A DNA stretch of 13,524 bases from positions 1-13,524 of IMG/VR virus record IMGVR_UViG_2534681938_000018; one strand, given 5' to 3'. Both the position numbers and the translations under genes were made by a program. Below the pieces are notes generated by a model that saw only the letters and a list, made by a program, of their open reading frames with translations, did no database searches and was not told the DNA's origin. Positions 2,125 through 9,836 of this stretch are shown here, piece by piece (position 1 is the first letter of the stretch; each line of letters begins with the position of its first letter). The DNA comes from a virus. Lineage: Duplodnaviria > Heunggongvirae > Uroviricota > Caudoviricetes.

Positions 2125-3978
2125 ATGACATTTAAACATTATGATGTTGTCAGGGCGGCGTCGCCGTTCAGACCTTGCGGAAAAGCTGACACACAAACTG
2201 AAAGAGGGCTGGCAGCCGTTTGGTAGTCCGGTGGCCATAACCCCTTATACCCTGATGCAGGCGATTACAGCAGAAGGTGATGTGGTGGTCAGTGGTGCAA
2301 CTGAGCCGGATTGGTACTACGTCATCGTACTGGCCGGGCAGTCCAATGCCATGGCTTACGGTGAAGGGCTTCCGCTGCCGGATTCATACGATGCTCCGGA
2401 TCCGCGCATTAAACAGCTGGCGCGCCGCAGTACAGTGACGCCGGGTGGGGCTGCCTGCAGATATAACGATATTATTCCGGCCGACCACTGCCTGCATGAT
2501 GTGCAGGATATGAGTACGCTGAATCATCCGAAGGCAGACCTGAGCAAAGGGCAGTACGGCTGTGTCGGCCAGGGCTTACATATTGCCAAAAAACTGCTTC
2601 CGTATATCCCGAATAACGCGGGGATCCTGCTGGTACCATGCTGTCGTGGTGGTTCGGCATTTACCCAGGGCGCGGAGGGGACATTCAGTGCGGACACGGG
2701 GGCCAGCCAGGATTCGGCGCGCTGGGGTGTGGGTAAACCGTTATATCAGGACCTGATTGCGCGCACCAAAGCTGCATTACAGAAGAACCCGAAAAATGTG
2801 TTGCTGGCGGTGTGCTGGATGCAGGGAGAGTTTGACATGAGCGCCGCCACCCACGCACAGCAACCTGCGCTGTTTACAGCCATGCTGACACAGTTTCGTG
2901 CTGACCTCTCCGTGTTTAACGCGCAGTGCCATGGTGGCAGTGCTGCAGATGTGCCGTGGATTTGTGGTGACACGACGTATTACTGGAAAAATACATACGC
3001 TACCCAGTACGACACCGTGTACGGCGGGTATAAAAACAGGGAGAGTGAGGGCGTTTATTTTGTGCCCTTCATGACAGACGGTAACGGCGTCAATACCGCC
3101 ACTAACGCGCCGGCAGAAGATCCGGATATTCCGGCATCAGGATATTACGGTGCGGCATCGAGAACGAATGGAAACCAGGTATCATCAAACCGCCCGACAC
3201 ATTTCAGTTCATGGGCGCGCAGGAGCATTATTCCGGATCGTCTGGCAACCGCTATTCTGAACGCAGCCGGGCGCACCTCAGCCTTCATCAGTGGTAAGGC
3301 ACCGGAAATCAAACCCTCGCCCGGCGGCAACACGCCATCGGGTCCGTCTGCAGATACGTCCGTTCGCACAATCTCCCTGCTGCCGGCAGCCGGAGAGGCT
3401 GCTGCGCAGGGCTGGAGCATTAAGGATGGCGGAATTCAGTTGTCAGATGGTGTATTTAAGATCACCAAGCAGAGCAATAAAACCTGGTCCCTGACGCATC
3501 CGGTGGATGACGCAATTACCCTGCTGACACAGGGCGGCAGACTGACCTGTAAGTTCCGCCTGTCAGGCGCACTGACAACAATCAGTTCGGGCTGGGGATT
3601 TATCTGTATACGGATGCTCCCGTTCCTGATGGTGTGGCGATGACGGGTACCGGTAATCCGTTCCTGATGTCGTACTTCACTCAGACCACTGACGGCAGAG
3701 TGAATCTGATGCATCACAGGAAAGCCGGAAACACGAAGCTGGGGGAGTTCGGCGATTACGGTAACGACTGGCAGACGCTGGAGCTGGTGTTCACCGCCGG
3801 CAGTGCCACGGTTACTCCGAAACTGAATGGAGTGGCTGGCCCGGCATTCCAGGTTATAAAAGACAGTCTGACACTGGGACTGAATGCGCTGACGCTGACG
3901 GATGTTACAAAAAATGCAGCGTATGGCGTTGAGATAGAAAGTCTGGTGCTGGAGATAAATGCACCGGCATCATCATAA
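2125..3978 (+). pseudogene. nanS: Prophage sialate O-acetylesterase (NanS-p family, SGNH/SASA esterase), apparently disrupted by two single-base frameshifts
   Basis: Strong SD (GGAGG) and ATG at 2125 give MTFKHYDVVRAASP, then the frame shifts into the 500-aa ORF 2141..3643 (LAGQSNAMAYGEG esterase motif), then again near 3599-3601 into ORF 3634..3978. Total span about 618 codons, matching prophage NanS-p esterases of EHEC Stx-type phages. Both shifts lie in short T runs (2167-2168; 3599-3601). Confidence 0.7.
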
Positions 3979-4063
3979 AAAGTGAGCCAGTCAAATGGAA
4001 GGTATCGTTAAACTCACCGGTAGTGTCAGTGGGTCGTCTGAGACGCCTGCATGAGTTATCAGA

Positions 4064-4092
4064 GCCATCAGTAGTTAACTGGTGGCTTTTTT
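4064..4092 (+). terminator. Terminator-like hairpin between nanS-p and the holin
   Basis: Stem GCCATCAG / CTGGTGGC (one mismatch), 7-nt loop, followed by TTTTTT at 4087-4092. Confidence 0.35.
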
Positions 4093-4127
4093 ATTGTTGT
4101 CAGCTTCCGGATAACGGGAGACGGGGT

Positions 4128-4343
4128 ATGTACCAGATGGAAAAAATCACAACGGGTGTGTCATACACCACGTCAGCGGTGGGGACGGGATACTGGTTAC
4201 TGCAGCTGCTGGACAAAGTCTCTCCGTCCCAGTGGGTGGCGATAGGTGTGCTGGGGAGTCTGCTGTTTGGCCTGCTGACGTATCTTACTAACCTGTATTT
4301 CAAAATCAGAGAGGACCGTCGTAAGGCGGCGCGGGGAGAGTAG
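4128..4343 (+). CDS. S: Class II holin, phage 21 S-type (71 aa), with dual-start motif (Met1, Met4)
   Basis: [71 protein letters not shown] closely resembles the S21 holin (...[14 protein letters not shown]...[20 protein letters not shown]); SD GGGAG 7 nt upstream of ATG 4128. Confidence 0.85.
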
Positions 4344-7105: not shown

Positions 7106-7159
7106 TCGCTGGTCCGGTGCGATGGTGGAAGAAACTGGATTTGCTGCAACTGATAACCA

Positions 7160-7391
7160 TTATCATTTTCGCGGGTCCTTTCCGGCGATCCGACAGGTTA
7201 CGGGGCGGCAACCTCGCGGGTTTTCGCTATTTATGAAAATTTTCCGGTTTAAGGCGTTTCCGTTCTTCTTCGCCGTAACCTAATGTTTTTATTTAAAACA
7301 CCCCCTGAAAAGAAAGGAAACGACAGGTGCTGAAAACGGGCTTTTTGGCCTCTGTCGTTTCCTTTCTCTGTTTTTGTCCGTGGAATGAACA
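7160..7391. other. cos: cos site (cosQ-cosN-cosB) of a lambda-type phage; cosN 12-nt overhang GGGCGGCAACCT at 7203-7214
   Basis: ...TCCGGCGATCCGACAGGTTACG / GGGCGGCAACCTCGCGGGTTTTCGCTATTTATGAAAATTTTCCGG... matches the lambda right-end/left-end junction; lies immediately upstream of Nu1, as expected for an integrated lambdoid prophage. Confidence 0.85.
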
Positions 7392-7937
7392 ATGGAGGTC
7401 AACAAAAAGCAGCTGGCTGACATTTTCGGCGCGAGTATCCGTACCATTCAGAACTGGCAGGAACAGGGAATGCCCGTTCTGCGAGGCGGTGGCAAGGGTA
7501 ATGAGGTGCTTTATGACTCTGCCGCCGTCATAAAATGGTATGCCGAAAGGGATGCTGAAATTGAGAACGAAAAGCTGCGCCGGGAAGTTGAAGAACTGCG
7601 GCAGGCCAGCGAGACAGATCTCCAGCCAGGGACTATTGAGTACGAACGCCATCGACTTACGCGTGCGCAGGCCGACGCACAGGAGCTGAAAAATGCCAGA
7701 GACTCCGCTGAAGTGGTGGAAACCGCATTCTGTACTTTCGTGCTGTCGCGGATCGCAGGTGAAATTGCCAGTATTCTCGACGGGATCCCCCTGTCGGTGC
7801 AGCGGCGTTTTCCGGAACTGGAAAACCGACATGTTGATTTCCTGAAACGGGATATCATCAAAGCCATGAACAAAGCAGCCGCGCTGGATGAACTGATACC
7901 GGGGTTGCTGAGTGAATATATCGAACAGTCAGGTTAA
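7392..7937 (+). CDS. nu1: Terminase small subunit Nu1 (181 aa)
   Basis: MEVNKKQLADIFGASIRTIQNWQEQGMPVLRGGGKGNEVLYDSAAVIKWYAERDAE... is near-identical to lambda Nu1; correct length and position after cos. Confidence 0.95.
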   Translation: MEVNKKQLADIFGASIRTIQNWQEQGMPVLRGGGKGNEVLYDSAAVIKWYAERDAEIENEKLRREVEELRQASETDLQPGTIEYERHRLTRAQADAQELKNARDSAEVVETAFCTFVLSRIAGEIASILDGIPLSVQRRFPELENRHVDFLKRDIIKAMNKAAALDELIPGLLSEYIEQSG

Positions 7938-9836
7938 CAGGCTGCGGCATTTTGTCCGCGCCGGGCTTCGCTCACTGTTCAGGCCGGAGCCACAGACCGC
8001 CGTTGAATGGGCGGATGCCAGTTACTATCTCCCGAAAGAATCCGCATACCAGGAAGGGCGCTGGGAAACACTGCCCTTTCAGCGGGCCATCATGAATGCG
8101 ATGGGCAGCGACTACATCCGTGAGGTGAATGTGGTGAAGTCTGCCCGTGTCGGTTATTCCAAAATGCTGCTGGGTGTTTATGCCTACTTCATAGAGCATA
8201 AGCAACGCAACACACTTATCTGGTTGCCGACGGATGGTGATGCCGAGAACTTCATGAAAACTCACGTTGAGCCAACCATCCGTGATATTCCGTCGCTGCT
8301 GGCGCTGGCTCCGTGGTATGGCAAAAAGCACCGGGATAACACGCTCACCATGAAGCGTTTCACCAATGGTCGTGGCTTCTGGTGCCTGGGCGGTAAAGCG
8401 GCAAAAAACTACCGTGAAAAGTCGGTGGATGTGGCGGGTTATGATGAACTTGCTGCCTTTGATGAGGATATTGAACAGGAAGGCTCTCCGACGTTCCTTG
8501 GCGACAAACGTATTGAAGGCTCGGTCTGGCCAAAGTCCATCCGTGGCTCCACGCCCAAAGTGAGAGGCACCTGCCAGATTGAGCGTGCAGCCAGTGAATC
8601 CCCGCATTTTATGCGTTTTCATGTTGCCTGCCCGCACTGCGGGGAGGAGCAGTATCTTAAATTTGGCGACAAAGAGACGCCGTTTGGCCTCAAATGGACG
8701 CCGGATGACCCCTCCAGCGTGTTTTATCTCTGCGAGTATAATGCCTGCGTCATCCGCCAGCAGGAGCTGGACTTTACTGATGCCCGTTATATCTGCGAAA
8801 AGACCGGGATCTGGACCCGTGATGGCATTCTCTGGTTTTCGTCATCCGGTGAAGAGATTGAACCGCCTGACAGTGTGACCTTTCACATCTGGACGGCGTA
8901 CAGCCCGTTCACCACCTGGGTGCAGATTGTCAAAGACTGGATGAAGACGAAAGGGGATACGGGAAAACGTAAAACCTTCGTGAACACCACGCTCGGTGAG
9001 ACGTGGGAAGCGAAAATCGGCGAACGTCCGGATGCTGAAGTGATGGCAGAGCGGAAAGAGTATTATTCAGCGCCCGTTCCTGATCGTGTGGCTTACCTGA
9101 CCGCCGGTATCGACTCCCAGCTGGATCGCTACGAAATGCGCGTATGGGGATGGGGGCCGGGTGAGGAAAGCTGGCTGATTGATCGGCAGATTATTATGGG
9201 CCGCCACGACGATGAACAGACGCTGCTGCGTGTGGATGAGGCCATCAATAAAACCTATACCCGCCGGAATGGTGCAGAAATGTCGGTATCCCGTATCTGC
9301 TGGGATACTGGCGGGATTGACCCGACCATTGTGTATGAACGCTCGAAAAAACATGGGCTGTTCCGGGTGATCCCCATTAAAGGGGCATCCGTCTACGGAA
9401 AGCCGGTGGCCAGCATGCCACGTAAGCGAAACAAAAACGGGGTTTACCTTACCGAAATCGGTACGGATACCGCGAAAGAGCAGATTTATAACCGCTTCAC
9501 ACTGACGCCGGAAGGGGATGAACCGCTTCCCGGTGCCGTTCACTTCCCGAATAACCCGGATATTTTTGATCTGACCGAAGCGCAGCAACTGACTGCTGAA
9601 GAGCAGGTCGAAAAATGGGTGGATGGCAGGAAAAAATACTGTGGGACAGCAAAAAGCGACGCAATGAGGCGCTCGACTGCTTCGTTTATGCGCTGGCGGC
9701 GCTGCGCATCAGTATTTCCCGCTGGCAGCTGGATCTCAGTGCACTGCTGGCGAGCCTGCAGGAAGAGGATGGTGCAGCAACCAACAAGAAAACACTGGCA
9801 GAATACGCCCGTGCCTTATCCGGAGAGGATGAATGA
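7912..9836 (+). CDS. A: Terminase large subunit A, with an apparent 1-nt deletion in an A-run (9631-9636) that shifts the last about 65 codons
   Basis: GTG start overlapping the Nu1 end; near-identical to lambda A up to ...EKWVDGRKK; the lambda C-terminus [66 protein letters not shown] is in the +1 frame (track ORF 9615..9836), ending at the TGA that overlaps the W start. Confidence 0.9.

Follow-up and report, generated by a model that had tools for sequence, protein, structure and literature searches.

A lambdoid late region in a draft contig

The window analysed here, 13,524 nucleotides long, makes up the entire contig AIFK01000019.1 in the draft assembly of Escherichia coli O157:H7 strain DEC4A (GCA_000249375.2). 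The contig dates from the 2012 era, and the DEC genomes are presumably 454-based, an assumption that we did not use as evidence. It carries a lambdoid prophage's late region, which is present in many copies per O157 genome. The genes and one-base changes discussed below are collected in Table 1.

The window agrees with lambda-type regions in the order Nu1-A-W-B-C-D-E and in the Pfam families GpA_ATPase/GpA_nuclease, Phage_lysis and DUF1737+SASA+DUF6645, the last three being assigned on the DEC4A esterase gene calls. Both gene order and sequence correspond to the lambda late genes A and Rz/Rz1 and to the prophage nanS-p esterases, from which the window differs solely by one-base indels. The terminase belongs to the lambda gpA type by its repaired full-length product, by GpA_ATPase and GpA_nuclease on the DEC4A call, and by its place in the order Nu1-A-W-B. 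The translation of Rz1 contains a lipobox-like signal and is rich in proline.

The closest complete genomes, here L001 and L002, share 99.6% and 99.5% identity with the window and are colinear with it from end to end. Every gene is intact in both, including the counterparts of those broken in the window: the esterase at 2126-3979, Rz at 6483-6950 (WP_001082526.1), the terminase at 7912-9837, and Q as a protein of 273 aa (WP_033803818.1). Positions 1-2100 have a best complete-genome match of at most 99.4%. Near-identical counterparts of the DEC4A prophage occur in strains 146N4 and FDAARGOS_293. At a join located at 9085-9125, conceivably chimeric, the sequence changes from the 146N4-type prophage to head genes of the DLP12 type.

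Table 1. Genes and private one-base changes in contig AIFK01000019.1.
Feature	Position	Strand	Remark
Q-type antitermination gene	133..955	+	4-5 ORFs here; five private one-base indels
One A lost (A5->A4), private	1166	+	Non-coding, upstream of a TerB-family pseudogene
One C lost (C5->C4), private	1762..1766	+	Non-coding DNA
nanS-p-type sialate O-acetylesterase gene (DUF1737 + SASA + DUF6645)	2125..3978	+	617 aa if intact; two compensating indels here
Frameshift 1: extra T (T1->T2), CCGTCAG -> CCGTTCAG	2167..2168	+	After esterase codon 14; comparison with relatives
Frameshift 2: one C lost, ACCAAC -> ACAAC	3575..3576	+	Esterase codon 484; comparison with relatives
Rz spanin gene	6482..6950	+	155 aa if intact; here runs on to 7105, 207 aa
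Rz1 lipoprotein gene, within Rz	6702..6887	+	Intact; ends upstream of the inserted G
Frameshift 3: G inserted between C6915 and A6917 (GGGGC^G^ACAGG)	6916	+	Rz codon 145-146; 3' of the G4 run
Lambda gpA-type terminase large subunit gene	7912..9836	+	641 aa if intact; last 68 codons out of frame here
Frameshift 4: A6 run, against A7 in lambda NC_001416 and nearly all relatives	9631..9636	+	Sequence comparison

Private one-base indels

We took the differences among L001, L002 and a third sequence, L003, across the window DNA as natural variation. The private changes number 23, of which 12 are substitutions and 11 are one-base indels relative to the two closest complete genomes (at 273, 553, 588, 633, 788, 1166, 1762, 2167, 3575, 6916 and 9630). 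Reverting all 11 indels opens every gene. The initial annotation had reported four frameshifts, two in the esterase and one each in Rz and terminase A. All four shifts are present, but the count was too low: five of the other indels lie in Q, upstream of the range it covered. These are an inserted G at 273, the loss of an A at 553 and 633, and an inserted A at 588 and 788, accompanied by three private nonsynonymous substitutions (L84F, F104I and C117W). After repair of the indels, the Q frame contains no internal stop. The warning that all ORF boundaries in the window were suspect was thus borne out, since the five additional indels split Q into four or five ORFs.

The exact sites also needed revision in part. 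The first esterase shift lies where it had been placed, after codon 14 at the TT of 2167-2168, and consists of an extra T. The second had been assigned to the TTT at 3599-3601; its true site is 24 nt upstream, where a C is lost at 3575/3576. This loss cancels the first shift, bringing the native esterase stop at 3976-3978 back into frame. The Rz shift was located closely but not precisely: it had been attributed to the GGGG at 6911-6914, whereas the inserted G is at 6916, past the G4 run, whose own length is unchanged. The terminase shift was described correctly as an A6 run at 9631-9636 in place of lambda A7, as comparison with NC_001416 and the closest relatives confirmed; the A7 tract of lambda A occupies the homologous position, and the lambda-like C-terminus of the terminase is found in the other frame, ending at 9836. 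The statement that all four shifts fall in homopolymers was too strong. Only A7->A6 concerns a substantial run, the others being T1->T2, C2->C1 and an insertion outside any run.

A comparison with other isolates had been proposed, and on complete genomes it found the closest relatives intact at all sites. The allele survey covered 5,426 complete E. coli genomes, with homologous copies counted per site. The allele of frameshift 1 occurred at none of 6,003 homologous places in 1,518 complete genomes, that of frameshift 2 at none of 3,908 in 707, and that of frameshift 3 at none of 3,063 in 1,631. Paralogues that are merely 87-95% identical still carry the reference state at 2167, 3575 and 6916. 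Three of the four reported alleles are therefore confined to one assembly, the A6 allele of the terminase being the exception.

The encoded proteins follow the same pattern. The frameshifted 500-aa esterase (EHU94656.1) and 207-aa Rz (EHU94663.1) are on record from AIFK01000019.1 only, and so is the portal protein EHU94668.1, which is full length and carries private substitutions. Once repaired, the esterase matches exactly on 42 other contigs and Rz on 236 other contigs; the repaired 641-aa terminase, 100% identical to that of L001, has an exact match on 20 contigs. An exact protein look-up of the 655-aa read-through terminase returned no record, and the terminase called by the DEC4A submitters is a shorter ORF of 422 aa.

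Base-calling error and prophage decay

The initial annotation had left two options, assembly error or prophage decay, and had correctly named the evidence that would discriminate between them. We favour the error branch over the decay branch because the alleles are private to a single draft contig, indels are strongly over-represented relative to substitutions, the private changes are concentrated towards one end of it, and reverting single bases yields proteins that are widespread on other contigs. The four reported frameshifts and the seven further indels upstream are very probably base-calling or consensus errors, from sequencing or assembly, in a low-quality draft contig. As a finding, the frameshifts are ordinary. 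In the real DEC4A prophage the genes for Q, the nanS-p esterase, Rz and the terminase are most likely all intact, as they are in its counterparts in 146N4 and FDAARGOS_293.

The ratio of indels to substitutions is 11:12 among the private changes and 0:105 among the natural differences in the same DNA (Fisher p=5.6e-10). The binomial probability of the private indel share is 4e-6 if a natural share of 10% is assumed and 0.0025 if it is 20%. Moreover, the first 1.8 kb of the contig holds 13 of the 23 private changes (p=1.3e-6) and 7 of the 11 indels (p=1.5e-4), and no private change lies within 3869-6915. Part of this interval, 4597-5650, matches another genome at 100% and as a rule occurs as a single copy (a median of one place in each genome). 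The private substitutions show little sign of selection: six are nonsynonymous and three synonymous, against 27:72 in the natural set (p=0.02). Of the 12, 4 shift a homopolymer boundary (for example TTAA->TTTA and GCCCC->GGCCC), against 8 of the 105 natural substitutions (p=0.02). The transition:transversion ratio, 6:6 private and 68:37 natural, did not differ significantly (p=0.35).

These features resemble draft-assembly indel errors, which are one-base, enriched in runs, private and clustered, and which leave genes looking like pseudogenes until a single base is corrected. In GS FLX pyrosequencing, indel errors far exceed substitutions and depend on homopolymer context (PMC3852801). A run context was found for 9 of the 11 indels (p=0.016), and 5 of the 11 lie in runs of at least four bases (p=6e-4). 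The pattern nevertheless differs from the textbook pure-homopolymer 454 pattern, which speaks against an artefact of the classic kind: several indels sit in 1-2-base runs or outside runs, and only 1 of the 30 runs of at least six bases is affected, 29 of 30 being untouched. Poor coverage or mixed paralogous reads probably have as large a share in it as homopolymer miscalling of the classic type. Likely sources of the errors are indel-prone reads, low coverage or the piling up of reads from paralogous prophages, above all near the contig's 5' end. In the paralogue-mixing test, the private indels did not coincide with paralogue-variable positions, and all sampled paralogues had the reference state at every site; paralogue mixing as the direct cause of the indels is not shown by this comparison.

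Genuine decay is unlikely. On that reading DEC4A truly carries the indels, its prophage is cryptic, and the genes for Q, the esterase, Rz and the terminase have become pseudogenes. Such a prophage would be without a late-gene antiterminator, a spanin and a terminase. Frame-shift, deletion and IS defects are indeed documented in the lambdoid prophages of O157, known from Sp1-Sp18 of strain Sakai (PMC2669165), with which the DEC4A element agrees in host lineage and prophage type. The preference of the indels for runs is as in polymerase slippage, and relaxed selection would be compatible with the private nonsynonymous changes seen in Q and in the portal gene. Unlike the Sakai defects, however, those of DEC4A are private to a single draft contig, and their statistics do not resemble those of natural change. 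A decaying lesion would be expected in related isolates, and the closest genomes are intact; substitutions are hardly more numerous than indels (12 against 11), unlike the excess of substitutions that neutral decay would give. The genes themselves fit poorly, for Q has five indels in 820 bp with three substitutions and the esterase has two with no private substitution, a combination that would require long neutral evolution without any further trace. The bunching of changes at one contig end, the lack of three of the four alleles among thousands of homologous copies, and the restriction of the frameshifted esterase and Rz products to this contig argue in the same direction. Finally, the window does contain genuine marks of decay, an internal stop in TerB and a truncation of DUF1327, and these are common to the window, L001 and L002, whereas the indels are not.

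The terminase A-run and packaging

Of the four alleles, A6 alone was found elsewhere. It occurred in 6 of 3,211 records in the complete-genome survey, in unrelated serotypes (O121, O145, O111:H11 and others), and the gene is annotated as frameshifted in each; its presence in six other assemblies means that the tract could be a genuine slippage hotspot. We therefore considered a mixed case, in which most indels are artefacts and the A7->A6 change is a real, recurrent slippage that inactivates packaging by the DEC4A prophage. The recurrence of annotated pseudogenes and the fact that A7 is among the longest runs in the window would suit this reading, which we nonetheless hold to be quite improbable. 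Long-read homopolymer errors would give the same recurrence, and one of the A6 records, RM8352, has terL, portal and S49 frameshifted in succession. Furthermore, the evidence for a poor contig applies equally to the A6 site, and the repaired terminase is the L001 protein. A stronger form, very doubtful in our judgement, would make the lambda-type A7 tract a recurrently slipping contingency site that toggles prophages between packaging-competent and defective states, with DEC4A and the six complete genomes as A6 'off' variants and the other indels as artefacts. Programmed frameshifting or transcriptional slippage yielding full-length products, as in lambda G/GT, has a single point in its favour, namely that the terminase site is an A-run and hence a sequence type able to support slippage, and we rejected it as scarcely conceivable because the homologues are all single uninterrupted ORFs, lambda and the other relatives encoding each protein in one frame, because the shifted arrangement is conserved nowhere among the surveyed homologues, and because 2167, 3575 and 6916 have no slippery sequence.

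Error in the contig thus remains the preferred reading for the A-run as for the other sites, and the evidence from the window gives no support to the view of the DEC4A prophage as cryptic. Even if the lesions were real, the initial annotation's conclusion that a defective terminase precludes packaging would not necessarily follow. In O157 Sakai, Sp4 is the one lambdoid prophage without an intact terminase (PMC2669165). Although an IS insertion disrupts its nu1, the Sp4 genome is packaged all the same, and the terminase responsible is most likely that of Sp14 (PMC2669165), so that packaging in trans by a sister prophage is documented in O157.

The case is a cautionary one: neither the ORF boundaries nor the pseudogene calls nor the 'novel' small ORFs of AIFK01000019.1 can be relied on without resequencing, and the other prophage contigs of the DEC4A draft are probably no more reliable. 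Rare private A-run frameshifts also arise in assemblies deposited as 'complete'. The terL frameshift of the finished O157:H7 genome PV15-279, which was intended as a control for lineage-shared decay, proved to be an A-run contraction found in only 3 of 1,591 records and is itself nearly private.

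Location and number of the frameshifts

The window spans contig AIFK01000019.1 of E. coli O157:H7 DEC4A (assembly GCA_000249375.2) from end to end. According to the annotation of DEC4A and of the two complete genomes closest to the window, O157:H7 146N4 (99.6% identity) and O157 FDAARGOS_293 (99.5%), it holds late genes of a lambdoid prophage. It runs from the end of rusA through the Q antiterminator gene, a TerB-family pseudogene, DUF3927, a nanS-p-type SASA esterase gene, holin, a truncated DUF1327 gene, ~1 kb of unannotated DNA, lysozyme, Rz/Rz1, Nu1, terminase A, W, portal, S49 protease and D to the start of E. 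Both relatives are colinear across the entire window, and in the annotation of each the esterase has 617 aa, Rz 155 aa and the terminase large subunit 641 aa, all three intact.

A three-way alignment of the window with both genomes was used to place the sites, and it established that the four frameshifts described in the initial annotation are genuinely present in the window sequence. The extra T in the esterase gene follows codon 14, as had been stated, and lambda likewise carries A7 in terminase A, as had been reconstructed. For the second esterase shift, the alignment shows a lost C instead of a change at TTT 3599-3601; this loss offsets the extra T and returns the native stop to frame. The Rz change is indeed a single base near GGGG, but not within that run. 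Based on this alignment, all four shifts are features of the sequence, although the position first given for one was wrong and only the terminase shift falls in a homopolymer of substantial length, contrary to the proposed homopolymer location of all four. The count of four was also too low, as the same alignment gave 11 one-base indels private to the window. Some other differences from the two relatives are natural alleles, in a head-gene stretch that follows O157:H7 PA20; with these alleles removed, 23 private changes remained, 11 indels and 12 substitutions. The damage to Q, absent from the initial annotation, represents the densest private changes of the contig.

Features of the window and of three comparison loci
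Feature	Position	Description
Q antiterminator gene	133-955	Broken into four or five ORFs by five private indels
Seven further private one-base indels	273, 553, 588, 633, 788, 1166, 1762	
TerB-family pseudogene	1191-1553	Internal stop common to 146N4, FDAARGOS_293 and O157 prophage of PV15-279
Esterase, first shift	2167/2168	Extra T
Esterase, second shift	3575/3576	One C lost (ACCAAC->ACAAC)
Event-free stretch	3869-6915	Zero private events
Plus-strand ORF	4347-5138	DUF1327 with 167-aa extension
Unannotated DNA	4597-5650	Follows truncated DUF1327 gene; no private changes
Minus-strand ORF	4887-5588	233 aa
Rz shift	6916	G inserted just 3' of G4 run
Allele-set switch	9085-9125	Inside terL, ~500 bp upstream of A6 site
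Terminase A run	9631-9636	A6; A7 in relatives
Portal private nonsynonymous substitutions	10040, 11343, 11602	K2R, Q436H, T523A
gpA A7->A6, locus L004	820-2744	Complete genome
gpA A7->A6, locus L005	820-5081	Complete genome
PV15-279 (NZ_AP018488.1)	13797-17502	Terminase large subunit and portal both annotated frameshifted; finished genome

Private changes compared with natural variation

Natural differences, counted over the same DNA between 146N4 and FDAARGOS_293 and between 146N4 and PA20, comprised 105 substitutions and no indels, as against the 12 and 11 private ones (Fisher p=5.6e-10). The private events were clustered, with 13 of the 23 lying within 1.8 kb of the window start (p=1.3e-6); the event-free stretch contains the unannotated DNA, which is usually single-copy and has a 100% match in another genome. 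Coding substitutions were nonsynonymous to synonymous at 6:3 among the private changes versus 27:72 among the natural ones (p=0.02). Shifts of a homopolymer boundary (TTAA->TTTA or GCCCC->GGCCC type), which are the product of an over-call adjoining an under-call, made up 4/12 private versus 8/105 natural substitutions (p=0.02). Of the 11 indels, nine had a run context (p=0.016); five were in runs of at least four bases (p=6e-4). Only 1/30 of the runs of at least six bases was affected, and therefore the pattern is not purely one of long homopolymers. In pyrosequencing, indel errors are far commoner than substitution errors and depend on homopolymer context (PMC3852801).

For each of the four reported sites, an 81-bp segment with the site at its centre was searched in 5,426 complete E. 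coli genomes. The extra T was found in 0/6,003, the lost C in 0/3,908 and the inserted G in 0/3,063 homologous places, and the A6 allele in 6/3,211 records, in which the annotation treats the gene as a pseudogene with a frameshift. Even paralogous prophages of 87-95% identity showed no departure from the reference at any of the indel sites. Exact-sequence look-up placed the 500-aa esterase fragment (EHU94656.1), the 207-aa read-through Rz (EHU94663.1) and the portal variant (EHU94668.1) on the DEC4A contig only, and returned no record of the 655-aa read-through terminase. The three substitutions of the portal variant are probably base-call errors as well; of 7,063 cluster members, none on a different contig had this protein.

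Undoing the 11 indels yielded a 13,525-bp sequence with all genes open. The repaired Rz and terminase were identical to the 146N4 proteins, with exact matches on 236 and 20 contigs, respectively; the repaired esterase differed by one residue each from the 146N4 and FDAARGOS_293 proteins and matched exactly on 42 other contigs. No decay marks besides the indels were found in these three genes.

Sequencing error versus prophage decay

Between assembly error and prophage decay, the two readings initially offered, the private alleles, the indel excess, the clustering and the reversion favour the former and speak against the latter. The best explanation, and a very probable one, is that the contig, a repeat-rich draft, contains sequencing or assembly errors. 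Genuine private decay of the prophage is improbable. Real frame-shift defects do occur in O157 lambdoid prophages (PMC2669165), but many more substitutions per indel are expected under real neutral decay than are seen in Q, where five indels are accompanied by only three private substitutions (all nonsynonymous, with C117W in a CPCC motif), or in the esterase gene, with two indels and none. Moreover, no private indel was common to 146N4 or FDAARGOS_293, whereas both share the TerB stop and the truncation of DUF1327 by the ~1 kb of extra DNA, which, unlike the 11 indels, are true inherited defects.

Slightly less probable still is a mixed case in which the A7->A6 contraction alone is real. This contraction was seen in six unrelated complete genomes. 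In one of them, O121 RM8352, terL, portal and S49 are frameshifted consecutively, which suggests assembly error there too. Even a real lesion would not prove the loss of packaging that had been proposed, because Sp4, the only Sakai lambdoid prophage without an intact terminase, is nonetheless packaged, most likely by the Sp14 terminase in trans (PMC2669165). The annotated terL frameshift of O157:H7 PV15-279, an A-run contraction (TCAAAAAACACGG), failed as a control for lineage-shared decay, being present in only 3/1,591 records; it shows that rare private A-run frameshifts appear in finished assemblies too. Programmed frameshifting is ruled out for practical purposes because every homologue has a single ORF.

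The finding is biologically ordinary, and its value lies in caution over ORF calls on the DEC4A contig.

Allele switch and unannotated DNA

Within terL, the allele set changes from the 146N4/FDAARGOS_293 type to the DLP12-type head-gene set. Past ~9126 the window carries head genes of the DLP12 type found in ordinary O157:H7, as in PA20 (99.9% over 9640-13524). Since this combination was not found in any complete genome, the contig may be a join of chimeric or collapsed-repeat origin. For window positions 1-2100, the best match among complete genomes was at most 99.4%.

The minus-strand ORF in the unannotated DNA had no Pfam match. Strain E2865 has the unannotated segment at 100% identity, and 132 complete genomes have it with at least 80% coverage.
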